NCBI GenBank assembly: GCA_016208525.1 | Contig: JACQYJ010000004.1 | Coordinates: forward strand, 1-46,760 | Direction: 5' to 3' | DNA: 46,760 bases | Source of the DNA: Deltaproteobacteria bacterium | Lineage (GTDB): Bacteria > Desulfobacterota > JAENJC01 | The notes under the pieces: model-generated | Told to the model about the DNA's origin: nothing | The model's database searches: none | Seen by the model: the letters and a program-made list of their open reading frames with translations, nothing else | Shown here: piece after piece, positions 1,111-46,760 of the stretch | Layout: each line of letters opens with the position of its first letter | Position numbering within the stretch: position 1 is the first letter of the stretch | Translations under genes and position numbers: made by a program

Positions 1111-1204
1111 GTGAAAATTGCAAATTGCAAATTGAAAAATGCAAAATAGAAGGAAACATCCGAATCTTTACACTTTACACTTTGCATTTTGAATTTTGCA
1201 ATAA
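1111..1204. repeat. Imperfect inverted array of heptamer-type repeats (ATTGCAA / TTGCAAA words) forming a long hairpin
   Basis: Left arm is gaaaattgcaaattgcaaattgaaaaatgcaaaat. Right arm is cactttgcattttgaattttgcaat, its imperfect reverse complement. Confidence 0.7.
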
Positions 1205-1216
1205 AGTTTGATGCAC

Positions 1217-1335
1217 TCGTAAAAAGTCCAAAATCACCCTTCGACAAGCTCAGGGCGAACGGTGGTCTGGTTGAAATCATTGACTTTATTCCGTTCGTGG
1301 TGAGCTTGTCGAACCACAGAAAAGACTTTTTACGA
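1217..1335. repeat. ~119-bp palindromic element (the 'FDKLRANG / SLSKG' type when translated)
   Basis: Outer arms tcgtaaaaagtc (1217-1228) and gactttttacga (1324-1335) are perfect reverse complements. Inner arms are ccttcgacaagctcagggcgaacgg and ccgttcgtggtgagcttgtcgaacc. A single-arm relative occurs at ~10683-10735. Confidence 0.8.
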
Positions 1336-1376
1336 ATGAATCAAGTTTAGCTGTTTGCAATATGGCTAAACTGTTT

Positions 1377-1892
1377 TTACATCTTGTACTTCCCGAAATC
1401 CTCCGGTGAAAGCTTCTCAAGGATACCTTCCCAGGCTCCATTTTCCATCTTACCCTTTGCTGTGAGGTCTATCCTCTTTGACCGCTCGATCACCCTGTCG
1501 CTCACAAATATGGGGCAGTTGGCACGGAGGGCGACGGCAATGGCGTCGCTCGGCCTTGCATCTACGGCAATCTCTTTTCTCCCCTTTTTTAGATAAATGG
1601 TTGCGTAGAACGTATTGTCCCTCAGGTCGTTTACTTCAACCATAATGATATCGGCGCCCAGTGCATGGACGGTATTCCTGAGAAGGTCATGTGTCATCGG
1701 CCTGGAAAGGGTCATCTTCTCAAGTTCCGCAGCAATTGCGCTCGCCTCTAATATCCCGATCCAGATCGGGATGGTCTGCCGCCCTTTCAGGTCTTTAAGA
1801 AGGACTACCGGCATGCTTGTAAGCAGGTCAAGGGTGAGCCCCTTGACCTGCATCTCTGTATATGAGTCGTCTTTCATTCGTTCATCCCTCAA
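1377..1892 (-). CDS. Bifunctional nuclease family protein (DUF151/BFN domain)
   Basis: 171 aa. GLTLDLLTSMPVVLLKDLKGRQTIPIWIGILEASAIA..RPMTHDLL..DARPSDAIAVALR matches the DUF151 core as I recall it. The start codon is uncertain: TTG at 1892 lies inside a heptamer array, and an internal Met (MQVKG) is also possible. Confidence 0.75.
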   Translation of the reverse strand: MRDERMKDDSYTEMQVKGLTLDLLTSMPVVLLKDLKGRQTIPIWIGILEASAIAAELEKMTLSRPMTHDLLRNTVHALGADIIMVEVNDLRDNTFYATIYLKKGRKEIAVDARPSDAIAVALRANCPIFVSDRVIERSKRIDLTAKGKMENGAWEGILEKLSPEDFGKYKM

Positions 1893-1902
1893 CCCTCATC
1901 CT

Positions 1903-3240
1903 TCATCCTTTCTCAATCATTTCTCCAATCAAAGAGTTAATAAAACCCTTTGCTATCCTTACCTGCACCAACTCCCCGACAAGCTCTTCATTTCCATCAA
2001 ATTTCACGGTCTTGAAGCTCCTCGTCTTTCCTGAAAGCCTCTCATGGCTTTTCTCGCCTCCACCCTCCACAAGTACCTCCACTACTTTTCCTTCGTATTC
2101 CATATTCCTTTCAAGGGATATCTCCCTCTGCCTCTCCTGAAGGAGCAGAAGCCTTTTATTCTTCAGGCCCTCATCAACCTGATCCGGCATCCCTGCCGCC
2201 TTTGTCTCGAGCCTCGGGGAGAATTTAAAGGAGAATATGGCATCGTACCTTACCTTTTCTATAAGGTCCATCGTGGCGTCAAAATCCTCACCCGTCTCTC
2301 CTGGAAAACCTACTATGATGTCCGAGGTCAGGGCCATTCCTGGCGACAGATCTCTAAGGGCTTGTACCCTGCCGAGATAACCATCCCTTGAGTAACTCCT
2401 GTTCATCTTTTTCAGGACACTGTCGGAGCCGGACTGTACCGGGAGATGAAGATGCTCGCACAGCTTGTCAAGCCTCCCGAAAGAGGATATAAGAGGGTCT
2501 GAGATATCCTTTGGATGAGACGTCATAAAACGCATCCTTTTCAAACCATGTATGCCGTTTACCTCCCTGAGAAGGGTCGGGAAGTCTGTCCCCTCATCAA
2601 GACCACGTCCGTATGAATTTACATTCTGTCCAATAAGGGTCACATCTTTAACACCCCTTGACACCAGACCCTCTATCTCTTTTATAATCCCTGCACTTGG
2701 CCTGCTAATCTCCCTCCCTCTCACATAAGGGACTATGCAATAGGAACAGAAGTTGTCACATCCGAGCATCACGTTCACAAGACCTTTCAGGCTGTTCGAT
2801 GAACTACCAGAGACCGGGGCAGGAAAGATATCAATGCCATTCTCATAAAAACGGGTCTCCGAAACCCTCTCCTTATTCCTCATTACCTGGCTGACAAGCT
2901 CCGGGAGTTTGTGTATGTTGTGGGTTCCAAATACGATGTCGAGATGCGGGACGCGCTTAAGGAGCCGCTCTCCCTCCTGCTGGGCAACACACCCGCCTAC
3001 CCCGATAATGAGGTTCGGGTTCCTCTCCTTGTAAGACTTGAGAGTCCCAAGGTAACTATAGACCTTATGCTCAGCCTTGTCCCTTACACTGCATGTGTTT
3101 AGGATTACAAGGTCCGCCTTCCCTATATCTGTGGTCGTCCTGTAATTGCAACCGGACAGAAGGCTGGTTATCTTCCCGGAGTCGCTGTCGTTCATCTGAC
3201 AACCGTGGGTCTCAACAAATAAAAATCTCTCCTGCACCAA
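1903..3240 (-). CDS. miaB: tRNA-2-methylthio-N6-dimethylallyladenosine synthase (radical SAM methylthiotransferase)
   Basis: 445 aa. It has the N-terminal UPF0004 motif FVETHGCQMNDSDS, the radical-SAM CDNFCSYCIVPYVRGRE motif and a C-terminal TRAM-like end. Start is TTG or GTG at 3240/3237. Confidence 0.9.
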   Translation of the reverse strand: MVQERFLFVETHGCQMNDSDSGKITSLLSGCNYRTTTDIGKADLVILNTCSVRDKAEHKVYSYLGTLKSYKERNPNLIIGVGGCVAQQEGERLLKRVPHLDIVFGTHNIHKLPELVSQVMRNKERVSETRFYENGIDIFPAPVSGSSSNSLKGLVNVMLGCDNFCSYCIVPYVRGREISRPSAGIIKEIEGLVSRGVKDVTLIGQNVNSYGRGLDEGTDFPTLLREVNGIHGLKRMRFMTSHPKDISDPLISSFGRLDKLCEHLHLPVQSGSDSVLKKMNRSYSRDGYLGRVQALRDLSPGMALTSDIIVGFPGETGEDFDATMDLIEKVRYDAIFSFKFSPRLETKAAGMPDQVDEGLKNKRLLLLQERQREISLERNMEYEGKVVEVLVEGGGEKSHERLSGKTRSFKTVKFDGNEELVGELVQVRIAKGFINSLIGEMIEKG

Positions 3241-3424
3241 CCCCTATACCTCCGATAAAGTCAAAATATTAATGGGTTTATGAGCTAAAGTCAATTACTT
3301 TCAGGGCTCATCTCCCCTGTGTTCCCCCTTTCTTGCCCTGTATTTCTTTTGTGCGCTCTGTGGTTCGATTGCAGGATTTAAATGGAACGAAAAACGATGG
3401 AGATATCGGAGAGATTTGGATAAA

Positions 3425-3540
3425 CCTAAAAAAAGCATTTGCCACTGACTTTCACGGACTAAGAGCAAGTAATTAAAAGATTTTTCGACTAGCATTAGAA
3501 TCACCTTTTGGGTGAACTGCTCATAATGTTTAAATGTTTA
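3425..3540. mobile_element. MITE copy 1 (right end deleted)
   Basis: Nearly identical to 43496-43640: cctaaaaaaagcatttgccactgactttcacggactaagagcaagtaattaaaagatttttcgac.agcattagaatcaccttttgggtgaactgctcataatgttt. The right terminal repeat is missing. Homology stops at the 3' end of the FNT ORF. Confidence 0.7.
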
Positions 3541-4201
3541 GGGCTATAAAACCACTTCCTCCGATCACATTCCCAAGGGTTACAGGAATCAGGCTATACA
3601 TAAATCCAACCCAGGTAAGGTTGCTGATATTCACTGAAGTCGGAACAACTACCTGGTACTGCGCCAGGAGGCCAAGGGGGATAAAGTACATATTCGCTAC
3701 GCAATGCTCAAATCCGGCGGCAACAAACGCAGACACAGGAAAGATAATGGCCAGTATCTTGTCCGTCACAGTATGACCGGCCAAAACCATCCAGACAGCC
3801 AGACAAACTAGGACGTTACAGAGAATCCCTTTAAAAAAAGCCTCCCAAAAAGGGGTTGACGTCTTAATCGCCGCAATCTTTACCATCTGAATCCCCACAG
3901 CTCCATCATTCATGGATGAGTGATGTGATAATGCGACTAAAAGAGCAAGACCTATAGCGCCTATAGCGTTCGCAATAAATATAACCAACCAGTTTTTTAG
4001 TAATTCAGTAGTTGTTATCTTCCTGCTGGTCCATGCCATAACAAGGAGATTGTTACCTGTGAATAATTCCGCCCCGGCCACAACCACAAGAATAAGCCCC
4101 AGAGAAAATACAAGCCCTCCAACTACCCGGCTTATCGCAAAACCAAGGGTTGTACCGAGATTATCCGGCGCATCGCCCTTTCTTCTTAAGTTCTCCGCCA
4201 T
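3530..4201 (-). pseudogene. Formate/nitrite transporter (FNT) family gene, apparently truncated at both ends
   Basis: 223 aa with FNT hallmarks: GGLVFSLGLILVVVAGAELFTGNN and FPVSAFVAAGFEHCVANMYF. The first TM helix expected in FocA/NirC-type proteins is absent. The last codons (..LNI-stop) are read from MITE sequence. A good SD (gaaggagg) precedes the ATG, so a short functional variant cannot be excluded. Confidence 0.5.
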
Positions 4202-4232
4202 CTCCTGCCTCCTTCAAACGTAATAAAAAAAA

Positions 4233-6409: not shown

Positions 6410-6414
6410 AATAT

Positions 6415-6474: not shown

Positions 6475-6478
6475 ATCT

Positions 6479-7207: not shown

Positions 7208-7270
7208 AAATTCCTTGACAAGATATACATTATTTAATAATATGTTACCAATACTTTGGCGGTGACTGAG

Positions 7271-12971: not shown

Positions 12972-13670
12972 CTAACCCGGCGAACGTTGTCCACTTTTAC
13001 CTTTCACATAATCATCCACAAACTCCGTCATCTCCCTCAGGTTAAATTCAAGCTCCTTCCTCTTCTCCTCCATATCGTCCTCTTTGCCTACATATATCGG
13101 CTCACCCCACATAAAAACGCCTCTGCTAAAAGGGTAAGGCAGATTAAAGGCGTCCCAGCTTGCAAAGACCTTTTTTTTTGAAGAACCGAATGTTAGAGGC
13201 AATATGGGTGCACCTGTAAGCCTTGCAAGGGCTATTACCCCCTCCTGAACCGCATACTTAGGCCCCCTTGGGCCGTCAGGTGTAATGCCTATATCATAAT
13301 CCTTCGTCGCCTTTACCATCTCCCTCATGGCAGCAGCCCCGCCCCTTGTTGTAGAACCCCTTATTGAGTCATATCCAAACCTCTTCATCGCTCTTGCCAA
13401 CAGATCCCCATCTTTATGCTGACTTATGAGTAATTTAATTCCCTTCCCATGATAACAGAAGGGCATCATCAAAAGCCTCCCGTGCCAGAAGGCAAGGATG
13501 AACCTCTCGTCTTTCTCCCAGAAAGGCCTTACCCGCTCTTCGTGGAGGAACTCCAGCTTCATGGCTGCTGCAAGCGCCCTTATTAGCAGACCGGCAATGG
13601 GAGGGGCTATGCTCAAAACGAGTCTGTCTTTTAATTTTAAGTTCTGAGACATAATGTATTTATATTGCAA
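12972..13670 (-). CDS. DUF374 / lysophospholipid acyltransferase-like protein (commonly linked to kdtA/lpxB)
   Basis: 232 aa. AFWHGRLLMMPF, LISQHKDGDLLA and ITPDGPRGP are motifs I associate with DUF374. Confidence 0.8.
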   Translation of the reverse strand: MQYKYIMSQNLKLKDRLVLSIAPPIAGLLIRALAAAMKLEFLHEERVRPFWEKDERFILAFWHGRLLMMPFCYHGKGIKLLISQHKDGDLLARAMKRFGYDSIRGSTTRGGAAAMREMVKATKDYDIGITPDGPRGPKYAVQEGVIALARLTGAPILPLTFGSSKKKVFASWDAFNLPYPFSRGVFMWGEPIYVGKEDDMEEKRKELEFNLREMTEFVDDYVKGKSGQRSPG

Positions 13671-13700
13671 ATCTCAAAGTGCAAATTGCAAAACTATATT

Positions 13701-14891
13701 TTATAAACTTTTCATTTTGCAATTTTCATTTTGCAATGTTTTATAAACTACCTCAGCGGCCCTCTTAGATGCGCCTGGGCCTCCCAGGGTCTCCCTGACC
13801 TTCCGCAAATCTCTTTTCATCTCTTCACTGCGTTTCTTGTCCCCAAGGATACTTAAACACTCCTCAGCCATCCTCTCCCCTGTCGCATCTCCCTGGACAA
13901 GCTCAGGGATAATCCCCTTCCCTGCTATTATGTTTGGAAGGCTTCCAAACTCCAGATTCACAAGCCTCCTTCCGATAAGGTATGTAAGGGGCGCCATTCT
14001 GTAAGTCATAACCATTGGTGTTCCAACAATTGCCGCCTCCAGGGTAGCAGTGCCTGATGCTATCAATATCAGGTCAGCGCCTGCCATGACATCATAAGTA
14101 TTCCCCTTAAAGACGCTCAGGTCGAGATCAACTCCGCCGGTAAAGCCTTTTATATACTCAACATCCAGTGTATTGGCTACAGGGATTGCAAACTTCGCCC
14201 CATCTATCTTTTTTGATATAATCCTGGCAGCCTCAAGCATCTCAGGGAGGAGGGATTCGACCTCCCTCTTTCTGCTCCCTGGAAGAAGGCCTATCACAAT
14301 ATCGGCCCTTCCGAAACCGAGGCTCCTCCTGATCTCATCCCTGTCAAACCCGGCAGGGACAGAATCCATAAGGGGATGCCCTACAAACTCCACATCAACC
14401 CCAACCTTCTCGTATATCGGAACCTCAAATGGGAAGACGACCATCATCTTGTCCACTACCCTGGCAATGGTCTTCACCCTGCTCTTATGCCAGGCCCAGA
14501 CCTGGGGGGAGATGTAGTATACAACCATTATACCCCGCGCCTTTGCTTTTTTGGCAAGCCTAATGTTAAAACCAGGATAGTCTATGAGGACAACGACCAC
14601 GGGCTTTATGATATCCATCAGGTTTTCCATGTCCTTCATTGCCTTCCTGATAAGCGGGAGCTTGTTTATAACCTCAAAGATCCCGACTATGGACATCTCT
14701 CTGACGTGATGGGATATATTGACTCCGGCATCTTTCATCATGTCCCCACCCATGCCAAAGAAGCTGATATTCGGGTCAAGCGCAAGGAGTTCACGGACAA
14801 GGTTCGCGCCGTGGAGGTCGCCGGAGGCCTCTCCGGCTACGATCAATAAGTTTTGAGTTTTGAGTTTTGAGTTTTGGGTTAAATCATTCAT
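13701..14891 (-). CDS. lpxB: Lipid-A-disaccharide synthase
   Basis: 396 aa with IVAGEASGDLHG near the N-terminus and LLPGSRKREV..ASGTATLE. Both the N-terminal and the C-terminal codons run through heptamer arrays. TTG at 14846 is an alternative start. Confidence 0.9.
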   Translation of the reverse strand: MNDLTQNSKLKTQNLLIVAGEASGDLHGANLVRELLALDPNISFFGMGGDMMKDAGVNISHHVREMSIVGIFEVINKLPLIRKAMKDMENLMDIIKPVVVVLIDYPGFNIRLAKKAKARGIMVVYYISPQVWAWHKSRVKTIARVVDKMMVVFPFEVPIYEKVGVDVEFVGHPLMDSVPAGFDRDEIRRSLGFGRADIVIGLLPGSRKREVESLLPEMLEAARIISKKIDGAKFAIPVANTLDVEYIKGFTGGVDLDLSVFKGNTYDVMAGADLILIASGTATLEAAIVGTPMVMTYRMAPLTYLIGRRLVNLEFGSLPNIIAGKGIIPELVQGDATGERMAEECLSILGDKKRSEEMKRDLRKVRETLGGPGASKRAAEVVYKTLQNENCKMKSL

Positions 14892-17175: not shown

Positions 17176-17199
17176 ATTTCCGTAAACTGTGAACCGTAA

Positions 17200-18556
<1,357 letters not shown>

Positions 18557-21454: not shown

Positions 21455-22354
21455 ATGTTTTTACAGCAACTAATAAACGGCCTTACAGTCGGCAGCGTAT
21501 ATGCCCTGATAGCCCTCGGATATACCATGGTTTACGGCATCCTGGGGCTCATCAATTTCGCCCACGGCGAGATATATATGACAGGGGCATATCTGGGGGT
21601 GATATTCTTCGGGATATTTACCGTAATGGGACTGACTGCAAAGAGCCTTACCCTTTCGATTATACTTACCTTTATCCTGTCAATCGTCTATTCGTCGGCA
21701 TACGGTTATACCATTGAGAAGATCGCTTACAGACCTCTACGCCATGCGCCGAGGTTGTCTCCGCTGATTACAGCTCTCGGTGTCTCCATATTCCTTCAGA
21801 ACTATGTCATGCTTTCTCAGGGGGCTAAGGACAAGGTCTTCCCGACTATCTTGTCAGGAGGCTTTACCATTGGTAACGCCACCGTCAGCAATCTGCAGAT
21901 ATTCATAATGGTTACATCTGTTGTCCTGATGGTACTCCTCCATCTCTTCATCACAAAGACGAGGATTGGGACTGCCATGCGGGCCACTGCCCAGGACAAG
22001 AAGATGGCGTCCCTCTTAGGGATCAATGTGGACAATGTTATTTCAGCGACCTTCATAATAGGCTCCGGCCTTGCCGCAGCCGGAGGAATGATGATAGCCA
22101 TGCATTACGGTCTTATCAATTTTTACATGGGTTATGTGGCGGGACTTAAGGCATTTACCGCAGCCGTCCTCGGCGGGATCGGAAATATCCCGGGCGCCAT
22201 GCTCGGAGGGATCGTCCTTGGCCTTGTAGAAGCGTTGGGGGCCGGATACATATCCTCGGAATATAAAGATGTATTTGCGTTCGGCATACTTATACTCGTC
22301 CTGCTTTTCAAGCCGTCAGGGCTATTAGGAGAAAATCTTCAAGAAAAAGTCTAA
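21455..22354 (+). CDS. livH: Branched-chain amino acid ABC transporter permease (LivH-like)
   Basis: 299 aa with MFLQQLINGLTVGSVYALIALGYTMVYG..NFAHGE. Confidence 0.9.
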   Translation: MFLQQLINGLTVGSVYALIALGYTMVYGILGLINFAHGEIYMTGAYLGVIFFGIFTVMGLTAKSLTLSIILTFILSIVYSSAYGYTIEKIAYRPLRHAPRLSPLITALGVSIFLQNYVMLSQGAKDKVFPTILSGGFTIGNATVSNLQIFIMVTSVVLMVLLHLFITKTRIGTAMRATAQDKKMASLLGINVDNVISATFIIGSGLAAAGGMMIAMHYGLINFYMGYVAGLKAFTAAVLGGIGNIPGAMLGGIVLGLVEALGAGYISSEYKDVFAFGILILVLLFKPSGLLGENLQEKV

Positions 22355-22453
22355 AGGCTAAAAGCTACCGCAGAGACGCGGAGACGCAGAGAAATCTAAC
22401 GCCCCCTCGCTCCCCCTCTTTAATAAAGAGGGGGATGGGGGGAGTTTTCGGCG

Positions 22454-26462: not shown

Positions 26463-26485
26463 TTTAGAGTTGGGAGTTGGGAGTA

Positions 26486-26545
26486 GGGGCGATCCGGCGG
26501 GTCGCCCAGTTCGCGTAGAATAGGGACTGTCCCCGGATTAAAGGG
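26486..26545. repeat. Palindromic element related to the GGGACAGTCCCC family, preceded by a GTTGGGA heptamer array (26463-26487)
   Basis: Sequence is ggggcgatccggcgggtcgcccagttcgcgtagaatagggactgtcccc. Confidence 0.7.
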
Positions 26546-30052: not shown

Positions 30053-31237
30053 TTATGAGCCATTCATCCTCTTGATTGTGACGCCGGGGTAATACCACTT
30101 AAGGATATCTTTGTAGCTCTTGCCTTCCTCTGCCATCCCCTTTGCCCCCCACTGACACATCCCAACCCCGTGCCCGCCTCCGCTTCCGGCAAAGTAGACA
30201 AAATCCTCCTTAATCTTTAAAGTAAAATCAGTGCTCCTGATGTTTTCAAATCCTAGGGCCTCCCTGAAATCCTTGCCCTCTAACACAAAAGAGCCTTTGC
30301 TGTGCCTGATTGATATTCTGGTAACCCTTCCAGAACTGGACCTCTTAAGGATTGAAACCGACTCAATATTGCCTATCCCGCTATTGAAGCGCCTGAGCCT
30401 GTCTCTCAAACCGTTCATATCTATCTTATGCTGCCAGAAGTAGTTGGGGGCCTCGGTACAGTGAGGGTCTTTTATACTCTTTAGATATGGTATCTCCTTT
30501 CCCCACACCTCCAGTGCGGCCTCAGTCTTTCCCCCGCAGGAAGAATGATAAAGGGCCTGGATCATCTCGCCATTATAATAGGCTGCCTCTCCCTCAGTCT
30601 CTTTCACTGCCTGGCGCGCAAGTTCATCCTCGCTGTCAATCCCGCTGTAAACCTGACTTGTAACCGTTGATTCCAGATCATACATTGGATACTTCCTGCT
30701 CTTTTTCTGATAAAGGGCATAAGTCCTGGCAACCACGGCCTGGGCCTTTACTGCCTCCATGGGCCACTTTGATGATATTTCCTGGTTTATGAGGCCAACC
30801 AGATAGTCCTCCAGTTTAAGCTCATTTATCAGGAGCAGACTTGAATTGTCTTTTACTATCTCTATCTTCCCGCGGTAACTCTTCCCATTTACCTTAATAC
30901 CGGGTTCTTTCGATTCTATCTTTAGCGATGAATACAATGTCCCGTTAACAACTATTCCACCTCTGCCGGCCTTTGCCTCAATGTCTGCATTGCTCAGGAT
31001 AGATACCTTATCATTGCCGATCACCCCTGTTATCGCGGCCCCGTCTCCCCCAACGCTTGCCACAGTCCCTTTGTATATGGCAACCCTAACGGTCTCCCGG
31101 GATTCCCAGGCAAACGAAGGATCGTAAAAAAACAGGCAAAAGGTAAAAGATAAAAGGTAAAAGATAAAATACAAACGGTTAGAGGTCTCCTTTTGACCTT
31201 TAACCTTTAGCCTTTCGCCCTTTTCCATCCGATTCAA
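30053..31237 (-). CDS. SpoIID/LytB domain protein
   Basis: 394 aa. EDYL.GL...E....WPMEAVKAQAVVARTYAL..and..YHSSCGG.TE are typical of SpoIID amidase-enhancer / lytic transglycosylase family proteins. The N-terminal ~35 codons lie inside a heptamer hairpin. Start is TTG 31237 or ATG 31228. Confidence 0.8.
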   Translation of the reverse strand: MNRMEKGERLKVKGQKETSNRLYFIFYLLSFTFCLFFYDPSFAWESRETVRVAIYKGTVASVGGDGAAITGVIGNDKVSILSNADIEAKAGRGGIVVNGTLYSSLKIESKEPGIKVNGKSYRGKIEIVKDNSSLLLINELKLEDYLVGLINQEISSKWPMEAVKAQAVVARTYALYQKKSRKYPMYDLESTVTSQVYSGIDSEDELARQAVKETEGEAAYYNGEMIQALYHSSCGGKTEAALEVWGKEIPYLKSIKDPHCTEAPNYFWQHKIDMNGLRDRLRRFNSGIGNIESVSILKRSSSGRVTRISIRHSKGSFVLEGKDFREALGFENIRSTDFTLKIKEDFVYFAGSGGGHGVGMCQWGAKGMAEEGKSYKDILKWYYPGVTIKRMNGS

Positions 31238-32681: not shown

Positions 32682-32770
32682 TACCGCAGAGTCGCAGAGG
32701 CACAGAGAAATCAGCAAAGGTTTTTGTCGCCGTCTCCGTGCCTCTGCGGTAGAGCAGATTCTCTGTTTTT
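32682..32770. repeat. Inverted 'CCGCAGAG(N)CGCAGAG' element
   Basis: The arms are taccgcagagtcgcagaggcacagag and ctccgtgcctctgcggtagag. Single arms occur at 22367-22396 and 43746-43773. Confidence 0.75.
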
Positions 32771-33299: not shown

Positions 33300-33318
33300 T
33301 CGTCTTACGTCTTACGTT

Positions 33319-34992
33319 TTACGTCTCACGTCTCACTGTCTTCAACATCTCCTCCGCATGCTTCTTAGTGGCCTCAGTAATGGTCATCCCCCCAAGCATC
33401 CTGGCCACTTCATCAACTCTTTCATCCCCGCTAAGCCGACTCGCCGTTGTTGTTGTCCTTCCCTTATTCTCTCCCTTTGAAACGGCATAATGGAGGTCTG
33501 CCAAGGCTGCGATCTGCGCAAGGTGGGTGATGCACAGGACCTGCCTTCCTTCAGCCACCTCCCTGAGCTTCCTTCCCACAATCTCGGCAACCCCTCCGCC
33601 AATACCTGAATCCACCTCGTCGAACACCATGGTAGGAACCCCGGTCGGGTTCGCAAGCACCTTTTTCAGCGCCAGCATGATCCGCGAAAGCTCCCCGCCT
33701 GAGGCTATTTTGGAAAGCGGCTTTGGCGCTTCACCAGGATTTGAAGAGAGCAGGAACTCAACCTTGTCAAATCCCTTTGCAGAGATATCGTTCAACCTCT
33801 CCATTTTGACCTCAAATATCGCCTTTTTCATCCCCAGGTCCGAAAGCTCCATTACCACCTTCTTTGTCAGCTCATCTGAACCCTTTTTTCTCTTCTCAGA
33901 AAGCGTTTCAGCTTTCTCCCGACCTTTAGCCTTTAACCTTTCACCTTCTCCTTCCAGCTCCCCTATCCTCTCTTCTGCCCTCTCAATGCCGTCGAGCTCC
34001 CTGTCCACCTCTTCCCTGTATTTCAGTATTTCAGAAACAGAACTCCCGTATTTTCTCTTCAGCCTGCCTATCAGGTCCAGCCTCTCTTCTATCTCATTAA
34101 GCCTTTCAGGATCAAAACTGATCCTGCCTGCATAGTCTCTAAGGGTCAAGGCCGCGTCCTCAATGGATGCGGAGGCAGAGTTTATGGCGTCCAGGGTCAC
34201 CCTCATGGACTCATCAATAATCGAGATATCCGTTACATTTGAACCTGCCTTTTTGATAAGCTCAAGGGCTGAACCGGACTGTGAATAAAGAATCTCCAGG
34301 GCCGTATTGGCAGATTCGTAAAGCCTTTCGGCATTAGAGAGAAGCTTCTTCTCCTCAAGCAGTTCCTCATCTTCATCTACTTTCAGGGCGGCCTTTTCAA
34401 TCTCATCGGACTGGAACCTCAGGAGGTCAACCCTTTTCTCCTTGTCTGCCTCTGACGACTTCAACAACACCAGTTCATCCTTGACCCTGTTCCACTCAGA
34501 ATAGATCCCTGACATCTCCTGACGTAAAGTCCCCAGGACGGCATACTCGTCAAGGACATCAATATGCCTATCTACCTTCATCAAGGTCTGGTGCTCATGC
34601 TGACCGTGGATATCTACAAGGAACTCTCCTACATCGGAGAGCATGGCAATAGTTGCCATAGAGCCATTTATAAAGACCTTGTTCTTGCCGGAAGCAGAAA
34701 TAGTCCTCTTGATAACAAGATTATCGTCCTTCTCAATCCCTATCTCACCAAGTTTTTCACTCACTCCCTTGACATCCGAGATGTCAAAGGCCGCCTCCAC
34801 CACCGCTTCTTCGCACCCGGAGCGTATCATCTCTGAAGATGCCCGGCCCCCAAGGACCAGGTCCACTGCGTCAACGATAATAGATTTCCCAGCCCCCGTC
34901 TCACCGGTAAGGACGTTAAAACCCTTCTCGAAGGCTATGTTAAGGGAGTCTATAATGGCGAAGTTCTTAATATTGAGTTGTGTAAGCATCAA
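33319..34992 (-). CDS. recN: DNA repair protein RecN
   Basis: 557 aa with MLTQLNIKNFAIID..FNVLTGETGAGKSIIVDA, a long coiled-coil, and C-terminal ASGGELSRIMLALK..MVFDEVDSGIGG. Confidence 0.95.
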   Translation of the reverse strand: MMLTQLNIKNFAIIDSLNIAFEKGFNVLTGETGAGKSIIVDAVDLVLGGRASSEMIRSGCEEAVVEAAFDISDVKGVSEKLGEIGIEKDDNLVIKRTISASGKNKVFINGSMATIAMLSDVGEFLVDIHGQHEHQTLMKVDRHIDVLDEYAVLGTLRQEMSGIYSEWNRVKDELVLLKSSEADKEKRVDLLRFQSDEIEKAALKVDEDEELLEEKKLLSNAERLYESANTALEILYSQSGSALELIKKAGSNVTDISIIDESMRVTLDAINSASASIEDAALTLRDYAGRISFDPERLNEIEERLDLIGRLKRKYGSSVSEILKYREEVDRELDGIERAEERIGELEGEGERLKAKGREKAETLSEKRKKGSDELTKKVVMELSDLGMKKAIFEVKMERLNDISAKGFDKVEFLLSSNPGEAPKPLSKIASGGELSRIMLALKKVLANPTGVPTMVFDEVDSGIGGGVAEIVGRKLREVAEGRQVLCITHLAQIAALADLHYAVSKGENKGRTTTTASRLSGDERVDEVARMLGGMTITEATKKHAEEMLKTVRRET

Positions 34993-36965: not shown

Positions 36966-39539
36966 ATGGAAAACCTTACACCTGCCATGAGGCAGTATTG
37001 GGAGATAAAGGAAAGGTATCCGGATTCGATCCTGTTTTTCAGGATGGGCGACTTCTATGAGATGTTCTTTGATGACGCCATTACCGCATCAAAGGTCCTT
37101 GAGATAACCCTTACAAAGAGAGGGAAGAGCGGGGGGGAAGATATCCCCCTGTGCGGCGTCCCTTATCATGCGGCAGACGGCTACCTGGCTAAGCTTGTGA
37201 GGCACGGTTTCAGGGTGGCTGTATGCGAGCAGGTGGAGGACCCGAAGACCGCCAAGGGTGTGGTAAAGAGGGACGGAAAGAGCAACTCTTTCCTTATGGC
37301 GATCCATAGAGCGGATGGAAAGTTCGGTCTGGCCTTCCTTGACCTCACCACAGGTGAGTTTCTTGTCACTGAGCTTTCTGATACACAATCACTGAAGGAT
37401 GAGATAGGCCGCCTTGAACCAAAGGAGGTTATTGTCTCTGAAGGAGATGATGAACAGATCGGCCTGCTTCGGGATACCCTTGACGGGGCGCTGATAAACC
37501 GACTTCCGCCTGACAGGTTTGATCACGACAGGGCATTCCGAAATATTACGGAGCATTTCAAGGTTATCTCCCTGGACGGGTTTGGTCTATCCGGTCTAAA
37601 GGCTGCGACATCGGCAGCAGGGGCTGTGCTTTACTACATAAAGGAGACCCAGAAGGTTGAGACCCTTCCAATAAGCGGGATCAAAAGGTACAGCCTTGAT
37701 GACTACCTTTTTATAGATGATTCTGCCAGGAGGAACCTGGAGCTGGCATCTAACCTCCAGAACGGCGGGAAGAAAGGGTCTCTCCTCGGGCTGTTGGACG
37801 AGACCGTGACTTCCATGGGGGGGCGCAAACTGCGGAGCTGGCTCAACTATCCACTGATGGATGTAGACAGGATAAACGAGAGGCTTGACGCAGTCACGGA
37901 GTTGAAGGAGTGGCAGCTTGTGAGAAACAGGCTCAGGGAGACCCTTGGCGGGGTTTACGACATTGAACGCCTCAACTCAAGGATAACCCTCGGAAGCGCC
38001 AACGCCAGGGAGATGGTTGCAATGGCCTCCTCCCTCAAGAGGATACCTGAGATAAAGGCAGTGTTGAGCAACGAGCAACGGGCAATGAGTAAACTGCTGA
38101 ATGATATCGTGGAGGGGCTGGATGGCCTCCCTGATGTGGTGAAACTCATTGACGACGCCGTTCTGGAAAACCCTCCCTTTATACTCAGGGAAGGCGGTAT
38201 CATAAGGGACGGTTACAATCTGGAGCTTGACGACCTGCGCTCTATCAGCCGGGATGGCAAGGGTTATATTGCAAGGATTGAATCAAGGGAAAAAGAACGC
38301 ACAGGGATAAACTCCCTGAAGGTTCGTTACAACAAGGTCTTTGGTTACTATATAGAGGTCACCCAGGCAAACCTTTCCGCCATTCCTGCGGATTACATAA
38401 GAAAGCAGACCCTCGTAAACGCTGAAAGGTTCATAACCCCTGAGCTGAAGGAGTACGAGGCAACGGTCCTTACAGCAGAGGAAAGGATAAGGGAGATCGA
38501 GTATCGCCTCTTTCAGGAGGTAAGGGAGAGGGTTGCGGCAGAGTCGGCGCGGATACAGAAGACGTCGGAAGGACTCGCAATAGTTGATGCCCTGGCCTCT
38601 CTGGGCGAGGTGGCAGACAGGTTTAACTATACAAGACCTGAAATATCGGACTCCTGCCCCCTTCGGATAGTCAGCGGCAGACACCCTGTCGTTTCGAGCA
38701 TCTCCCGTTCCAACAGGTTCGTCCCGAACGACACATTCCTCGATTCCGGGGAAAACCAGATAGCCATCATTACAGGCCCAAATATGGCCGGAAAGTCCAC
38801 ATACATAAGACAGGTGGCCCTCATCACCATCATGGCCCAGATGGGGAGCTTCGTGCCGGCAGAGGAAGCCGAGATAGGGGTGGTGGACAGGGTATTCAGC
38901 AGGGTGGGGGCATCGGACGACCTCTCAAAGGGACAGAGCACATTCATGGTGGAGATGATAGAGACCGCCAATATCCTGAACAATGGCACATCTAAAAGCC
39001 TTATAATCCTTGATGAGATAGGCAGGGGGACATCTACCTTTGACGGACTGAGCATAGCATGGGCAGTGGCCGAGTATATATCCGACAGGGTAAAGGCAAA
39101 GACACTCTTCGCCACTCACTATCACGAGCTTACAGACCTTGCCCTTCTCAGGGGAAATATAAGGAACTTTAACGTGGCTGTAAGGGAGTGGAACGACCAG
39201 GTAATATTCCTGCATAAGATAGTGCCCGGTGGGGCAGACAGGTCTTACGGCATTCATGTTGCCCGGCTGGCCGGACTCCCTCAGGAACTCCTGCGAAGGG
39301 CCAGGGAGATACTCCTGAACCTTGAGAAAGGAGAATTCTCCCCAGAGGGGATGCCGAAGCTGGCTCAGATAAAAAAAGAGAGTGGTCAGGGGTCGGGAGT
39401 CAGGGGTCAGTTAGAGGCGCAACTGCCACTATTTGCCCCGAGGGACACACTAAGGGACGAGTTAAGGAGCATTGATGCGGATAACATGACCCCTCTTCAG
39501 GCGCTGGCAAAGATCGAGGAGCTCAAAAGGCTTATATGA
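36966..39539 (+). CDS. mutS: DNA mismatch repair protein MutS (with an atypical domain I/II junction and an in-frame heptamer insert)
   Basis: 857 aa with TPAMRQYWEIKERYPD..FFRMGDFYEMF (the Phe-x-Glu mismatch motif), Walker A GPNMAGKST, and DEIGRGTSTFDG..ATHYHEL. Confidence 0.95.
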   Translation: MENLTPAMRQYWEIKERYPDSILFFRMGDFYEMFFDDAITASKVLEITLTKRGKSGGEDIPLCGVPYHAADGYLAKLVRHGFRVAVCEQVEDPKTAKGVVKRDGKSNSFLMAIHRADGKFGLAFLDLTTGEFLVTELSDTQSLKDEIGRLEPKEVIVSEGDDEQIGLLRDTLDGALINRLPPDRFDHDRAFRNITEHFKVISLDGFGLSGLKAATSAAGAVLYYIKETQKVETLPISGIKRYSLDDYLFIDDSARRNLELASNLQNGGKKGSLLGLLDETVTSMGGRKLRSWLNYPLMDVDRINERLDAVTELKEWQLVRNRLRETLGGVYDIERLNSRITLGSANAREMVAMASSLKRIPEIKAVLSNEQRAMSKLLNDIVEGLDGLPDVVKLIDDAVLENPPFILREGGIIRDGYNLELDDLRSISRDGKGYIARIESREKERTGINSLKVRYNKVFGYYIEVTQANLSAIPADYIRKQTLVNAERFITPELKEYEATVLTAEERIREIEYRLFQEVRERVAAESARIQKTSEGLAIVDALASLGEVADRFNYTRPEISDSCPLRIVSGRHPVVSSISRSNRFVPNDTFLDSGENQIAIITGPNMAGKSTYIRQVALITIMAQMGSFVPAEEAEIGVVDRVFSRVGASDDLSKGQSTFMVEMIETANILNNGTSKSLIILDEIGRGTSTFDGLSIAWAVAEYISDRVKAKTLFATHYHELTDLALLRGNIRNFNVAVREWNDQVIFLHKIVPGGADRSYGIHVARLAGLPQELLRRAREILLNLEKGEFSPEGMPKLAQIKKESGQGSGVRGQLEAQLPLFAPRDTLRDELRSIDADNMTPLQALAKIEELKRLI

Positions 39540-39553
39540 TTCAGGAGGACAAA

Positions 39554-43697: not shown

Positions 43698-43814
43698 AAT
43701 TCACCTGTCTGGTGATCCTGGTTTTCAACCAAATCTATTGATTTTCCTCTGCGATCTCTGCGTCCTCTGCGGTTAAATGCTCTTTTTAGGTTTATTATAT
43801 TGCAGGGTATACGG

Positions 43815-43945
43815 ATGGCGGCGCTCCCTATGGCGTAACATGGGAAGAGATGGAGAAAGAAGCGGCAGGAGAGACAACAGGGTCAAGGGATTAGTCATTA
43901 AGGTTCCAAATCCCGTCAACCTCCTGGGCGCCCCACACAGATTCA
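43815..43945 (+). ncRNA. Candidate molybdenum cofactor (Moco) riboswitch upstream of moaC (tentative)
   Basis: The position is upstream of moaC-moaA. The hairpin gggatt(43887-43892)...aatccc(43909-43914) is followed by GUCAACCUCC. I recall CCCGUCAACC plus a GGyC..GGG stem as conserved in the Moco RNA motif. The 5' CCUCCGAGCC block that I also recall is not evident here. Confidence 0.3.
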
Positions 43946-43988
43946 GGTTCACTGTTGACAATAAGTGCGCAAGGTGGCATTCTACAGC

Positions 43989-44486
43989 ATGGAAAAGAAG
44001 CTGACTCACTTTAATTCTTATGGAAGGGCAAGGATGGTGGACGTGTCCGCCAAGGAGGCAACCGAAAGGGTTGCCGTAGCCGGCGGGAAGGTGCGGATGC
44101 AGCCCGAAACTCTGAAGCTCATACAGGCAGGGAAGATGAAAAAGGGGGATGTGCTTGCTGTGGCCCAGGTAGCCGGGATCATGGGGGCAAAGAAGACATC
44201 GGAACTCATCCCAATGTGCCATCCTCTTCTTCTCACGTCCGTGGATATAACCTTCAGCGAAGATGCTGCCCTGGATTTAGACGGCCTCGTATCCATCCAT
44301 CTGGAGGCCAGGGTCAAGACCACAGGCCAGACAGGGGTTGAAATGGAGGCCCTCACCGCAGTCACCACGACGCTCCTTACCATATACGACATGTGCAAGG
44401 CCGTTGACAAAGGAATGAGCTTTGAGGATATATCACTTCTGTCCAAGACAGGCGGGAAGTCGGGAGAATACAAGAGAAAGGGGTGA
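43989..44486 (+). CDS. moaC: Cyclic pyranopterin monophosphate synthase
   Basis: [22 protein letters not shown]..and..[30 protein letters not shown] 43989 is preferred over GTG 43965. Confidence 0.9.
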
Positions 44487-44492
44487 GGGCTA

Positions 44493-44553
44493 AAGGATGA
44501 AGGATGAAGAAAAACTATTCTTTTTCATCCCTTATCCTTCATCCCTCATCCTT
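44493..44553. repeat. Inverted AAGGATG heptamer array forming a hairpin, followed by a T-run, between moaC and moaA
   Basis: Sequence is aaaggatgaaggatgaagaaaaactattctttttcatcccttatccttcatccctcatcctt, then ggtttttt and ATG (44562). The same word forms the array at 1878-1910. Confidence 0.75.
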
Positions 44554-44561
44554 GGTTTTTT

Positions 44562-45551
44562 ATGAATATAACAGACTCCTACAACCGAAAGATTGAATAT
44601 CTCCGGGTCTCAGTGACAGATCGGTGCAACATGCGCTGTACATACTGCATGCCGACTGAAGGGATCAAGCTCATTCCGCATCATGAACTCCTTCACTACG
44701 GAGAGATAAGGGAAGTTGTAAGGGCAGGCGCACTCCTCGGCATAAAGAGCGTCCGGCTTACCGGCGGCGAGCCCACTATAAGAAAGGAGCTGTCAAGGTT
44801 CATCTCCATGCTTAAGGAGGTTGAAGGGATCGAAGAGGTCACCCTGACCACCAACGCCCTCCTTCTTTCAAAACTGGCGCAGGAGTTCAAGGATGCCGGA
44901 CTGGACAGGGTCAATATAAGCCTTGATTCGCTGAAGCCGGAGAGATTTTCTGAAATTACACGAGGCGGGGATTTAAAGGCGGTTCTGGAAGGGATTCAGG
45001 CCGCTCTCGATGCAGACCTTTCGCCTGTTAAGTTGAACGTTGTTGTCATCCCGGGGTTTAACGACGACGAGGTGGAGGAGATGGCAGCCTTGAGCATAGA
45101 AAGGCCTCTTCATGTGCGCTATATTGAATTCATGCCCATTGGAGACCAGAGGCTTCATAAGGAGAAGAAGTATATCAGGACCGCTGAACTGGTTGAGAGA
45201 TTGAAAAAAAGGTTTGAATTATCAGTTGCGAATAAGGGCGCGGGCATGGGGCCCGCCAGTACGTATAGGATCAGCGGCGCGAAAGGCACCGTCGGGTTCA
45301 TAAGCTCCATAAGCGAGCACTTTTGCGGCACCTGCAACCGGCTCAGGCTTTCTTCGGACGGCTGGCTCAGGTCATGCCTTTTTAATGAGAAACTGGCTGT
45401 TGAGATGAAAACCCCTCTCAGAAACGGCGCATCCCTGGATGATTTGAAAGAACTGTTTATGAAGGCCGCAGGGATAAGACCGGTTGGACATGAACTGGAT
45501 ACAAGGGGCTCACTTGATTTCAAGAGGACCATGTCACAGATAGGGGGATAG
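44562..45551 (+). CDS. moaA: GTP 3',8-cyclase (radical SAM)
   Basis: 329 aa with YLRVSVTDRCNMRCTYCMP and C-terminal CGTCNRLRLSSDG. Confidence 0.95.
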   Translation: MNITDSYNRKIEYLRVSVTDRCNMRCTYCMPTEGIKLIPHHELLHYGEIREVVRAGALLGIKSVRLTGGEPTIRKELSRFISMLKEVEGIEEVTLTTNALLLSKLAQEFKDAGLDRVNISLDSLKPERFSEITRGGDLKAVLEGIQAALDADLSPVKLNVVVIPGFNDDEVEEMAALSIERPLHVRYIEFMPIGDQRLHKEKKYIRTAELVERLKKRFELSVANKGAGMGPASTYRISGAKGTVGFISSISEHFCGTCNRLRLSSDGWLRSCLFNEKLAVEMKTPLRNGASLDDLKELFMKAAGIRPVGHELDTRGSLDFKRTMSQIGG

Positions 45552-45559
45552 TTTAAATT

Positions 45560-45587
45560 TCAAATCTCAAATCTCAAATCTCAAATT
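45560..45587. repeat. TCAAATC heptamer array (3 perfect units plus 1 variant) immediately 5' of alr
   Basis: tcaaatc occurs three times (45560-45580), followed by tcaaatt. Confidence 0.85.
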
Positions 45588-45604
45588 ATCAGGGAAGACC
45601 TACA

Positions 45605-46705
45605 CTGGCAGAGATAGACCTGGATGCCCTTGGTTATAATTACAGCAAGATAAAAGAAAAGACAGGGGACAAAAAGGTACTTGCCGTTGCAAAGGCCAAT
45701 GCCTATGGACATGGCGCTGTGGAGGTTTCAGGTGAGCTGGAAAGGCTCGGCGCCGACTATCTGGGCGTTGCCATCCTTCCTGAAGGGATTGAACTCAGAA
45801 ATGCAGGGATCAGCAGGCCGATACTCCTTCTGAACGGCATATTCCAGGGGGAGGCTGCTTATGTGCTTAAGCATAACCTTACCCCCGTGATCTTTTCAAT
45901 AGATACCGCCATGGAGATTTCCAGTGAGGCTGCTAAGGCCGGAAAAACAGTCCCTGTGCATGTAAAGATAGATACGGGGATGAGGAGGCTTGGGCTCTTG
46001 CCGGGCGAAGTAGAGCAGTTTTTGGGAAGACTCAAAGAACTGAAAAACATAAAGGTTGAAGGGGTTCTCTCCCACTTTGCAACAGCGGACAGCAAGGACA
46101 GAGGGTTCATGGATGAGCAGGTCGGCGCTTTTTCTGATGTAGTCGGGAAAATCAGGTCTATGGGGTTTTCCCCTGAGTATATCCATATAGCCAACAGCGC
46201 TGCAATAATTGCCGACAACCTCCCTGATTATCTTAACATGGTGAGGCCTGGAATAACCCTTTACGGCTCCCACCCCTCCATCTGGTTCCGGGATAAGATA
46301 GACCTGAAGCCGGTCATGACCCTTAGAAGCGGGTTAGTCCAGATAAAAAGGGTTAAGAAGGGTGAAAGTGTAAGCTATGCAAGGACGTTCACGGCTGAGA
46401 GGGACAGTATTGTAGCGGTGGCGCCGATAGGATATGCCGACGGGTATCCGAGGCGCCTTTCCAATATTGGCGAGGTAATAATAAGGGGGAAGACCGCTAA
46501 AGTAGCAGGGCTTGTATGCATGGACCTCCTGATGATAGATGTAACCGATGTGCCTGAGGTGTCTGCAGGTGATAAAGTGGTTCTGTGGGGAGTCGGGATG
46601 CATGTTGACGAACTGGCAAGGAAGGCGGGAACCATTTCATACGAACTTTTTTGCAGGGTCTCCGGAAGGGTGCCGAGGAATTATATAAAACAAGGTAAAA
46701 GGTGA
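45605..46705 (+). CDS. alr: Alanine racemase (start codon uncertain; no canonical start upstream of the catalytic Lys)
   Basis: The frame is open from 45557. The conserved N-terminus (GRPT)LAEIDLDALGYNY..VLAVAKANAYGHG, which includes the PLP lysine, lies upstream of the track's GTG at 45719. The only in-frame candidates are CTG 45605 (9 nt after aggga), CTG 45620, ATC 45578 and ATT 45557. The C-terminal part reads VSYARTF..IGYADGYPR. Confidence 0.8.
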   Translation: MAEIDLDALGYNYSKIKEKTGDKKVLAVAKANAYGHGAVEVSGELERLGADYLGVAILPEGIELRNAGISRPILLLNGIFQGEAAYVLKHNLTPVIFSIDTAMEISSEAAKAGKTVPVHVKIDTGMRRLGLLPGEVEQFLGRLKELKNIKVEGVLSHFATADSKDRGFMDEQVGAFSDVVGKIRSMGFSPEYIHIANSAAIIADNLPDYLNMVRPGITLYGSHPSIWFRDKIDLKPVMTLRSGLVQIKRVKKGESVSYARTFTAERDSIVAVAPIGYADGYPRRLSNIGEVIIRGKTAKVAGLVCMDLLMIDVTDVPEVSAGDKVVLWGVGMHVDELARKAGTISYELFCRVSGRVPRNYIKQGKR

Positions 46706-46760
46706 AAGGTGAAAGGCAAAAGGTAAAAGGTGAAAGGTGAAAGGCAAAAGGTGAAAGGCA
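46692..46760. repeat. AAGGTGA/AAGGTAA/AAGGCAA heptamer array (~10 units, higher-order 28-nt period) running to the window edge
   Basis: Sequence is aaggtaa aaggtga aaggtga aaggcaa aaggtaa aaggtga aaggtga aaggcaa aaggtga aaggca. The alr stop TGA (46703-46705) is inside unit 2. Confidence 0.85.

Follow-up and report, generated by a model that had tools for sequence, protein, structure and literature searches.

The stretch of DNA analysed here (the window; 46,760 nt, contig JACQYJ010000004.1 of the Deltaproteobacteria bacterium assembly GCA_016208525.1) carries protein-coding genes, among them a minus-strand string of lipid A genes, lpxB, recN and mutS, between and in places within which lie short tandem arrays with a repeat unit of mostly 7 nt. 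Part of these arrays stand as inverted pairs that can fold into hairpins (Table 1). Heptamer repeats have been on record from cyanobacteria since 1990 and from many bacterial genomes since 2007, and their origin and function are without an accepted account. It is argued below that the arrays are probably the arms of gene-less relatives of hairpin cassettes that resemble the intervening sequences (IVS) of 23S rRNA genes, reshaped by slippage in steps of one unit.

Tandem Repeats Finder (TRF) was applied to the window and to the whole assembly, in which the window is contig C5 (1.77 Mb, 238 contigs, 79% complete, 47.7% G+C). Arrays were counted from at least 3 copies upward, and order-1 and order-5 Markov sequences modelled on the same contigs served as nulls. 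Genes were called with a crude open reading frame (ORF) and hexamer coding model, and start positions are approximate. Genome-wide there are 376 arrays of period 7, compared with 3 (order-1) and 10 (order-5) in the Markov sequences; the next most frequent periods are 8 (93 arrays), 9 (58) and 6 (29), and the nulls nowhere exceed 11. A detector based on self-matches gave the same picture: among lags 3-15, lag 7 scored 170 hits and lag 14 scored 107, and none of the others exceeded 14. Perfect runs of at least 14 nt number 109 at lag 7 and at most 12 at other lags, and the lengths of perfect runs fall off roughly geometrically. After merging, 386 arrays spanning 13.5 kb were obtained, which corresponds to 218 per Mb.

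An earlier note on the window, made from its letters only, had listed 13 places with such arrays, and all of these are real: at 12 of them TRF reports an array of period 7 (or of 14 or 28, i.e., two or four times 7), and the left arm at 17181-17215, so degenerate that TRF misses it, is readily recognised in the sequence and pairs with its right arm in the fold. Two more arrays (22346-22367 and 38066-38089) were added by TRF. Since the excess at 7 nt is genome-wide, the phenomenon is not a peculiarity of the window. The period is less constant than was supposed, however: 7 nt dominates, but arrays with units of 8 or 9 nt also outnumber those of the nulls (1-3), their words differ from the heptamers (e.g., CGCAGAGA, CGCAAAGA and AATCTGTGT), and their partners likewise have equal period.

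Table 1. Tandem-array features of the window (contig C5) and PF05635 loci elsewhere in the genome
Coordinates	Feature	Strand	Context	Evidence and remarks
1113..1204	hairpin pair, TGCAAAW / WTTTGCA arms		between two minus-strand genes	TRF 1115-1145, 1166-1183, 1181-1200 (right arm 1166-1200); RNA fold -24 kcal/mol, z -4.15
1881..1910	single TTCATCC array, 4.3 copies		junction of genes 1377-1892 and 1903-3240	TRF
13665..13738	hairpin pair, TGCAAAT / TTTTGCA arms			TRF 13666-13737, period 14; sequence; weak fold, z -1.4
14849..14880	single AGTTTTG array, 4.6 copies		lpxB start / upstream gene end	TRF, 96% matches
17181..17259	hairpin pair, CGTAAGY/GTGAACC with TCACGGT arms		between plus-strand genes	TRF right arm 17233-17258; fold -28.4 kcal/mol, z -3.83
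22346..22392	AAAGGCT heptamers, 3.1 copies, then directly CGCAGAGA octamers, 3 copies			TRF (heptamers 22346-22367)
26467..26488	single GAGTTGG array, 3.1 copies		head of ~95-nt composite insert with GC-rich palindromes	TRF
31135..31225	hairpin pair, AAAGGTA/AAAGATA with ACCTTTA arms			TRF 31138-31169, 31192-31215; fold -30 kcal/mol, z -3.85
32685..32707	CGCAGAGG octamer array, 2.9 copies, period-8/9 hairpin family			TRF
33301..33342	single CGTCTYA array, 5.9 copies		immediately past recN stop	TRF
33922..33947	ACCTTTA-like 7-periodic stretch	-	inside recN	TRF, 3.7 copies, 84% matches
38066..38089	GAGCAAC array, 3.4 copies, in frame	+	variable mutS linker	TRF
39384..39410	GGTCAGG array, 3.9 copies, in frame	+	mutS C-terminal linker	TRF
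43746..43771	CCTCTGCGA nonamer array, 2.9 copies, period-8/9 family			TRF
44485..44558	hairpin pair, AAGGATG / TTCATCC arms			TRF 44493-44553; fold -30.1 kcal/mol, z -4.99
45555..45586	single AAATCTC / TCAAATC array, 4.6 copies			TRF, 96% matches
46692..46758	AAGGTGA array, 9.6 copies		reaching contig end	TRF and sequence
C158:856-1164	intact PF05635 gene		between GGTGAAA/AAAGGTA x8 and CCTTTAA x7	upstream TGA stop in first unit
C113:9455-9759	frameshifted PF05635 copy		between GAGGGAT x4 and TCCTTCA x4	
C173:3110-3409	PF05635 gene		between AGCTTAT-type arrays	
C19	PF05635, fourth locus			clear arrays at the other three loci only

The arrays of the genome form 284 clusters, 95 of which are pairs or triples detected by TRF. 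Adjacent arrays are reverse complements within 2 mismatches in 77 of 102 cases and direct repeats in 17, and a targeted search revealed a degenerate partner for 19 of the 96 "single" arrays between co-directional genes. Inverted pairing had been described as the usual state; about half of the arrays are in fact paired, not most of them (in the window, 5 pairs among ~17 arrays). A typical pair consists of 4-5 units of 7 nt (~30 nt) per arm and a loop with a median of 12 nt (interquartile range 6-20). The period is the same in both arms in 130 of 141 pairs, and the arm lengths are weakly correlated (r = 0.25). When folded in silico, four of the five window pairs gave z scores of -3.8 to -5.0. 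Folding of "single" arrays together with their flanks gave energies no better than those of random loci, and a search for a G:U asymmetry favouring the sense strand found hairpin stability to be unbiased (17:14 and 20:16).

The pairs have a fixed handedness. In 61 of 62 pairs the purine-rich arm comes first and the pyrimidine-rich arm follows after the loop (p = 3e-17), the mean purine content being 0.73 in the first arm and 0.28 in the second. With periods 6-9 pooled, 92 of 96 pairs are purine-first, and the degenerate partners of the singles all lie on the side predicted by the handedness (19 to 0). A dependence on the direction of the genes cannot explain the purine-first order, since either strand of an inverted repeat reads alike. 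The handedness is therefore an intrinsic chirality: followed 5' to 3', the purine-rich strand leads from the outside into the element at both of its ends. Stop codons in all three frames were found in 25 of the 62 first arms versus 7 of the second arms, and a ribosome entering the element on either strand would first meet the arm rich in TAA, TGA and TAG.

With respect to genes, 52% of the arrays are intergenic as compared with 20% of the genome. An array begins at a median of 5 nt past a stop codon (86 of 164 overlap the stop or lie within 5 nt of it; at 44485-44558 the TGA of the upstream gene sits within the first units) and usually ends 6-40 nt ahead of the next start codon, clear of the next ribosome-binding site. 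Of the junctions occupied, 164 are co-directional (1199 in the background), 13 convergent (130) and 3 divergent (128), which means that divergent junctions are depleted (3 seen, ~16 expected). A location at gene boundaries, as originally described, does not apply to the arrays at 33922 (recN), 38066 and 39384 (mutS), which are intragenic; throughout the genome 56 of the 284 clusters (~20%) have a positive in-frame coding score on both sides and are found in linkers. In mutS the stretch around 38066-38089 is the most variable of the alignment with relatives. The stretch inside recN was probably not inserted as an array but is part of the normal coding sequence, because it has equal length in all three relatives and a strong coding score on both sides.

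The relatives in question, which were sampled rather than compared as whole genomes, are two congeners (G001 and G002; MutS 92-93% identical) and a member of the sister genus (G003; 90%), the rest of the phylum being at most 56% identical. Flanking genes stay 85-95% identical while the arrays between them change in length, vanish or are replaced. Changes in copy number between congeners go in steps of 7 nt. For example, the hairpin at 17181-17259 has an identical counterpart in G002 and one shorter by 42 nt (6x7) in G001, and G003 has a GGTAGAG array there; the TGCAAAW hairpins at 1113-1204 and 13665-13738 recur in G001 and G002 with both arms shorter, the second one by 21 nt in G002; and at 39384-39410 mutS of G001 is without exactly 21 nt (three units, in frame) and that of G003 without 24 nt. 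At 14849-14880 the arrays of G001 and G002 have equal length and a less homogeneous sequence, and G003 has a CGTCTCA-type array, while the 4.6 copies at 45555-45586 correspond to ~2 degenerate copies in G001.

At other sites the array is missing altogether. G001 lacks the whole ~80-nt hairpin of 44485-44558 and has a gap of 3-4 nt between the genes. The two genes next to the 26467 array are only 4 nt apart in G002 and G003, which lack the ~95-nt insert headed by this array; as both are without it, the insert is most simply a gain in the lineage of the window. The array at 1881-1910 is absent from the orthologous site of G002 and G003, and an unrelated 134-nt insert is present in G001. The 22346 site measures 19 nt in G002 and has no array. 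Where the site is only a few nucleotides wide in a relative, the element itself constitutes the intergenic spacer.

At further sites one element stands in the place of another. At 31135-31225 three congeners have three unrelated pairs: AAAGGTA/ACCTTTA in the window, TGCAAAA/TTTTGAT in G002 and GAAGATA/AACTTCT in G001. The AAGGTGA array at 46692 (9.6 copies) is represented in G001 by a GTGGTCA/GACCACC hairpin. The unit of 33301-33342 is found also in G002 and G003, there beside a ~95-nt palindromic element that is lacking here, and G001 has AACTCYT. In a gene for a UvrD-like helicase (contig C57) there is an in-frame GAGTTSG/GACTCCY pair; in its place G001 and G003 show a GC palindrome of 28 nt, a difference of 45 nt that keeps the frame. 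At C200:1975-2172 a gene-less hairpin (arms of CGCAGAGG octamers, loop of 93 nt) occupies the position of a PF05635 cassette with GTGGTCR arms in G001 and G003. At C20:6369-6571 remnants of both TGCAAAA arms enclose a nested CGCAAAGR hairpin, and G002 has a PF05635 pseudogene with TGCAAAA arms at this site; here (C20:6500-6571) and at the G002 locus the pyrimidine-rich arm (TTTTGCA-type) is translated as the hydrophobic core of the signal peptide of the next gene's lipoprotein. At the site of the C158 cassette another element, a dispersed palindrome of ~50 nt, is present in G002, and an ordinary spacer together with another downstream gene in G001. A second case of nesting is seen at C158:6420-6920, where a GTGGTCA/CCGACCA hairpin occupies part of the long loop belonging to an AAAGGYR/CCTTTAA element; the inner hairpin has the 12-nt direct repeat AGCCAGCGAGCC on both sides, perhaps the footprint of an insertion. 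From the replacements at the same site and the nesting, gene junctions and already existing hairpins seem to be preferred places for new hairpins.

In spite of this turnover the vocabulary is kept. Of ~1,170 canonical classes that are possible, 89 account for the 370 arrays that have a 7-nt consensus, the leading classes being ACCACTG (34 arrays), AAGGATG (32) and AGGGATG (21). In ~250 kb sampled from G001-G003 the density is 11-18 arrays per 100 kb (21 here), and 27 of the 35 arrays found belong to a class recurrent in our genome, versus 2.4% for random heptamers. A vocabulary that is preserved across genera while the sites turn over argues against birth of the arrays from chance local seeds only.

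A possible source for this vocabulary is offered by cassettes that carry a gene between the two arms. PF05635, the four-helix bundle family of proteins encoded in 23S rRNA intervening sequences, has four loci in the genome, none of them in the window (Table 1), and its cassettes lie between protein-coding genes (C158, C113) or tRNA genes (C173) and not in 23S rRNA. In 22 genomes of the phylum arrays were found on both sides of 14 of 29 PF05635 loci, compared with 0-1 of 300 random spans, and 32 of the 38 flanking arrays are of period 7. PF05635 proteins with different arms are 22-44% identical to each other; the orthologous pair of G001 and G003, which has the same arms, is 90% identical. A search for array pairs with long loops yielded two cassettes of period 8/9 that carry genes of PF13366 (GxxExxY, a PD-(D/E)XK nuclease). 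This family has nine loci in the genome with arms of period 8-10, and among its 27 loci in the phylum the period of the flanking arrays is 8-10 in 13 of 13 scored and never 7. Arm period thus goes with the cargo: 7 with PF05635 and 8-10 with PF13366. It follows that the period histogram (7 >> 8 > 9) mirrors two cassette families, which accounts for the excess at 8 and 9. The octamer at 22346-22392 belongs to the vocabulary of the period-8/9 hairpins, and the unit class at 32685-32707 is common to gene-less 8-mer hairpins and near to the arms of PF13366 cassettes.

The arms of gene-less hairpins resemble those of the cassettes. Identical to an arm unit of PF05635 cassettes of the family are 146 of the 370 heptamer arrays (random, 0.8%), and 220 of 370 are within one mismatch (random, 18%). 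In a small sample of the phylum six genomes with PF05635 had 6 arrays in 125 kb and four without it 1 array in 120 kb, which is only suggestive. The few dominant, shared and cassette-matching classes point to several families of hairpin elements plus slippage rather than to a generator that is blind to sequence; in the earlier note a generating mechanism had been suggested from the variable units at constant period. The other half of that suggestion, that the arrays are not copies of a single mobile sequence, holds, because loops and flanks are unconserved and the units fall into so many classes; at 30 loci of the AAGGATG type flanks and loops proved to be unrelated, by which one mobile element was rejected. 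Judged from period, unit words and handedness of the arms, the gene-less hairpins would be non-autonomous or decayed relatives of IVS-like stem-loop cassettes, and roughly 100 or more small hairpin elements are present in the 79%-complete genome.

The steps can be pictured as follows. New sites would be colonised by copy-and-insert or by templated replacement, favouring gene junctions and existing hairpins, with the cassette proteins as candidates for the enzyme of spread. Once in place, the arrays would grow and shrink by replication slippage, each arm independently. In RNA, stems of ~30 bp may be substrates of RNase III, by analogy with the IVS of Coxiella (PMC4990558).

Several observations weigh against this derivation and should be considered together. 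About half of the arrays are true singles. The loops of the 7-mer hairpins are unconserved, and descent from cassettes is therefore read from the arms alone. Among the orthologous sites compared, none was found at which a cassette in one genome and a gene-less hairpin in another have the same arms. In the phylum 10 of 30 PF05635 loci are without a clear array, and at 3 of 12 the handedness is opposite. No target-site duplication is seen at the one clean filled/empty site, 44485-44558 versus G001. Gene ends resemble the first unit of the array that follows (GGTAAT vs. GGTGAAA; GAAGGAAG vs. AAGGATG), which fits in-situ seeding as well as microhomology-guided insertion. The proportion of arrays that match arm units is also high for periods 8 and 9, but this figure is inflated, the reference list of cassette arms having held one unit from a gene-less hairpin. 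Finally, unit variants are not mirrored between the arms of a pair (score 17.3 vs. 17.8 after block shuffling). The arms are therefore neither recent fold-back copies of each other nor maintained as complementary, and both a fold-back origin and compensatory evolution were rejected.

An alternative, unlikely in our estimate but the best of those considered, is that the arrays are pure microsatellites: slippage with a step of ~7 nt, as in the polymerase-footprint idea of Mrazek and colleagues (PMC4679880, PMC4692102), would build every array in situ from a chance seed, and pairs, position and vocabulary would be by-products. Length differences that amount to whole units (21 nt in mutS and, at hairpins, 42 and 21 nt), the proto-repeat of ~2 copies in G001 at 45555-45586, the likeness of gene ends to the first unit, the independent evolution of the arms and the roughly geometric decay of perfect-run lengths are all as expected. 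Slippage from chance seeds does not, however, lead one to expect that a few unit classes are shared across genera (27 of 35), that unrelated units are exchanged at one site between flanks 85-95% identical, that complete inverted pairs appear in gaps of 3-4 nt, that the handedness is 61 to 1, or that a cargo gene is tied to the period of the arms. Slippage alone is thus a live but weaker rival.

Slightly less probable still is operon punctuation selected by the host, in which the hairpins would work at the mRNA level between co-directional genes, be it as sites of processing by RNase III or otherwise, as stabilisers of 3' ends or as terminators, and the tandem structure would serve to tune the stem length. 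That the arrays begin right past stop codons and end short of the next ribosome-binding site, that divergent junctions are depleted (3 vs. ~16), that the folds are stable and that heptamer IVS stems are cut by RNase III in Coxiella (PMC4990558) would all fit. The idea is weakened by the lack of conservation (congeners have no element, or another one, at the same junction), by the absence of compensatory variants in the arms and by the ~20% of clusters in frame inside genes; moreover, stability is not biased toward the sense strand. A scan of positions 1-20000 for intrinsic terminators listed none of the three hairpins located there (1113-1204, 13665-13738 and 17181-17259) and found 21 sites versus 19.6 in shuffled sequences, and no Rfam family matched anywhere in the window, in which no rRNA was found. 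Terminators and known RNA families were accordingly set aside as the identity of the hairpins.

Less probable again is that the arrays are binding sites for a host single-strand nucleic-acid-binding protein of the cold-shock or S1 type with a footprint of ~7 nt that acts on translation, as has been proposed for the TAACTGA repeats of Beggiatoaceae (PMC4679880). A constant period with variable sequence, the vicinity of start and stop codons and a likeness, by inspection, of the purine-rich units to Shine-Dalgarno sequences could be understood in this way; yet half of the arrays are sequestered in hairpins, periods 8-10 behave alike, the arrays are unconserved at orthologous sites, and the Beggiatoa layout is a different one, with a single word in direct repetition shortly upstream of starts. 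It is least probable of all that the hairpins are REPINs, i.e., doublets made up of repetitive extragenic palindromes (REPs) mobilised by a REP-associated tyrosine transposase (RAYT; Y1 HUH): the elements are hairpin-forming, extragenic inverted doublets present in hundreds per genome and five Y1_Tnp matches are encoded, but these genes are flanked by non-tandem inverted repeats of 18-27 nt of their own (AAAGGGGACAGGC..., GGGGTCAGAC...), none of the five has a heptamer array beside it, by which REPIN/RAYT membership was rejected, and the arms are tandem arrays of dozens of words and not one conserved REP.

A separate REP/RAYT system may nevertheless exist in this genome. Behind the GAGTTGG array, at 26489-26560, lie the GC-rich palindromes ggcgatccggcgggtcgcc and gggactgtcccc, and similar words of the GGGGACAG type form the inverted repeats that flank a RAYT-like Y1_Tnp gene on contig C18. 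A diversity-generating retroelement was also considered as context for the Avd-like PF05635 and was set aside; the only RVT_1 match is at C18:16757-17230, at the contig end, and C18 has no PF05635 match.

Other repeats are present in the window. A dispersed repeat of ~110 nt lies at 1222-1330 beside the first hairpin and has dozens of copies in G001-G003 (80-93% identity). An element of ~60 nt at 6415-6474 and 29524-29586, the latter copy within ORF 28931-30052, recurs throughout G001-G003 with up to 98% identity, and a ~40-nt repeat at 10599-10638 has many copies at 92-98% identity, chiefly in G003. A perfect 27-nt x2 tandem duplication is found at 43541-43594. The region 8000-10000 in the string of lipid A genes has a low G+C content (0.39 vs. 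0.47-0.50 elsewhere), and the ORFs at 8187-10782 were missed by the coding model. Around mutS, 51 nt (17 codons) near 37270 that are present in all three relatives are missing here, and the 1280-residue TPR/SEC-C ORF at 39536-43378 that follows the gene is absent in G001, where mutS directly precedes the homologue of 43940-44480. At the contig end, the array 46692-46758 is probably the purine-rich arm of a long hairpin; contigs C224 and C157 start with long CCTTT-type arrays complementary to it. Contig ends within 40 nt of a 7-, 8- or 9-periodic array number 24 of 476, with ~13 expected, a modest enrichment.

What this genome contributes to the problem of heptamer repeats is a set of handles: a fixed handedness, a vocabulary that crosses genera despite the turnover of sites, an arm period tied to the cargo, and a series of replacements at the same site. 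The likeness of the arms to those of PF05635 cassettes provides a testable origin for this class of repeats. The elements also affect proteins, in that they add residues to essential ones (MutS, the UvrD-like helicase) and can encode a signal peptide. A bolder extension, which we put forward tentatively and regard as rather unlikely as it stands, is that the PF05635 four-helix bundle and the PF13366 nuclease are trans-acting factors of an undescribed class of mobile hairpins, each of which would recognise and propagate arms of tandem words and set the word length; the hundreds of gene-less STRR-like hairpins of this and many other phyla would then be non-autonomous progeny, as REPINs are to RAYTs. 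If the cassette proteins do drive the spread, a very common class of "junk" repeats and, with it, two families that are among the most widespread of the uncharacterised small proteins would be explained together.

It remains to compare the arrays with known systems. The only parallel that had been named for them is the short tandemly repeated repetitive (STRR) sequences of cyanobacteria (Mazel et al., 1990; PMC4692102). The form is indeed STRR-like, with tandem heptamers of many unit types that are dispersed and mostly intergenic, but heptamer excess is published also for Xanthomonas, Nostoc, Geobacter, Beggiatoaceae, Microcystis and Bacteroidetes (PMC4692102, PMC2700814, PMC4679880). Heptanucleotide long simple sequence repeats (LSSRs) of prokaryotes were described by Mrazek, Guo and Shah (2007; PMC4679880, PMC4692102). 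The arrays agree with the definition of LSSRs in having tandem units of 5-11 nt among which heptamers predominate, far above random expectation, and in being mostly intergenic, with the genic copies keeping the frame. LSSRs and STRRs also share with our arrays the short length (mostly ~4 units), the presence of several types per genome, dispersal, strong excess, and variation of length and sequence between close relatives, and occasional inverted pairs are reported from Xanthomonas (PMC4692102). The differences are the phylum, the far larger number of unit classes (89), the pairing of half of the arrays as hairpins of fixed handedness, and the link to cassettes, which lies outside the published descriptions; a literature search turned up no general link of heptamer arrays to PF05635 or PF13366 cassettes. 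The STRR1-3 units (CCCCAGT, TTGGTCA and CAACAGT; canonical ACTGGGG, AATGACC and AACAGTC) are absent from the 60 commonest of the 89 classes, the nearest ones, such as AACAGTG and GTGGTCA, being one mismatch off. The host of STRRs is a heterocystous cyanobacterium, whereas the best named matches of two proteins from our genome are to metagenome-assembled genomes (MAGs) of Nitrospirota (~54%) and to Geomonas or Desulfobacterota-type sequences (50-54% identity), i.e., by best matches not to a cyanobacterium.

The TAACTGA repeats of marine Beggiatoaceae, cyanobacteria and Bacteroidetes (PMC4679880) and the GGGACCG and MTYCTGA repeats of Geobacter metallireducens (PMC2700814) are likewise runs of 2-6 heptamers at gene junctions, some of them in frame in ORFs, and by inspection CTCCTGA and ATTCTGA of our genome fit the consensus MTYCTGA. 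There, in contrast, one or two words dominate, the arrangement is direct, and no cassette link is reported. Compared with miniature inverted-repeat transposable elements, which are marked by terminal inverted repeats, a target-site duplication and conserved internal sequence, the hairpins have the inverted arms, unconserved loops, no duplication at the 44485 site, and the 12-nt direct repeat on C158. The REPIN/RAYT system (Bertels and Rainey, 2011; PMC3116915) is a useful working model, in that extragenic hairpin doublets without a gene far outnumber the few gene-carrying copies with the same flanking repeats, even though the arms here are tandem arrays of variable words and the genes belong to PF05635 and PF13366 and not to a Y1 transposase.

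The IVS of Coxiella burnetii (PMC4990558) consists of an S23p (PF05635) ORF with terminal inverted repeats that form a 28-bp stem cut by RNase III, and the stem contains tandem GACAGAT heptamers whose number varies between strains. The cassettes described here differ in lying outside 23S rRNA (the IVS is inserted in helix 25 or 45), in that most copies are gene-less, and in having arms that are long multi-unit arrays. In common they have the PF05635 gene within inverted repeats that form a long stem, as at C158, C113 and C173, the heptamers in this stem, and an ORF that is often decaying.

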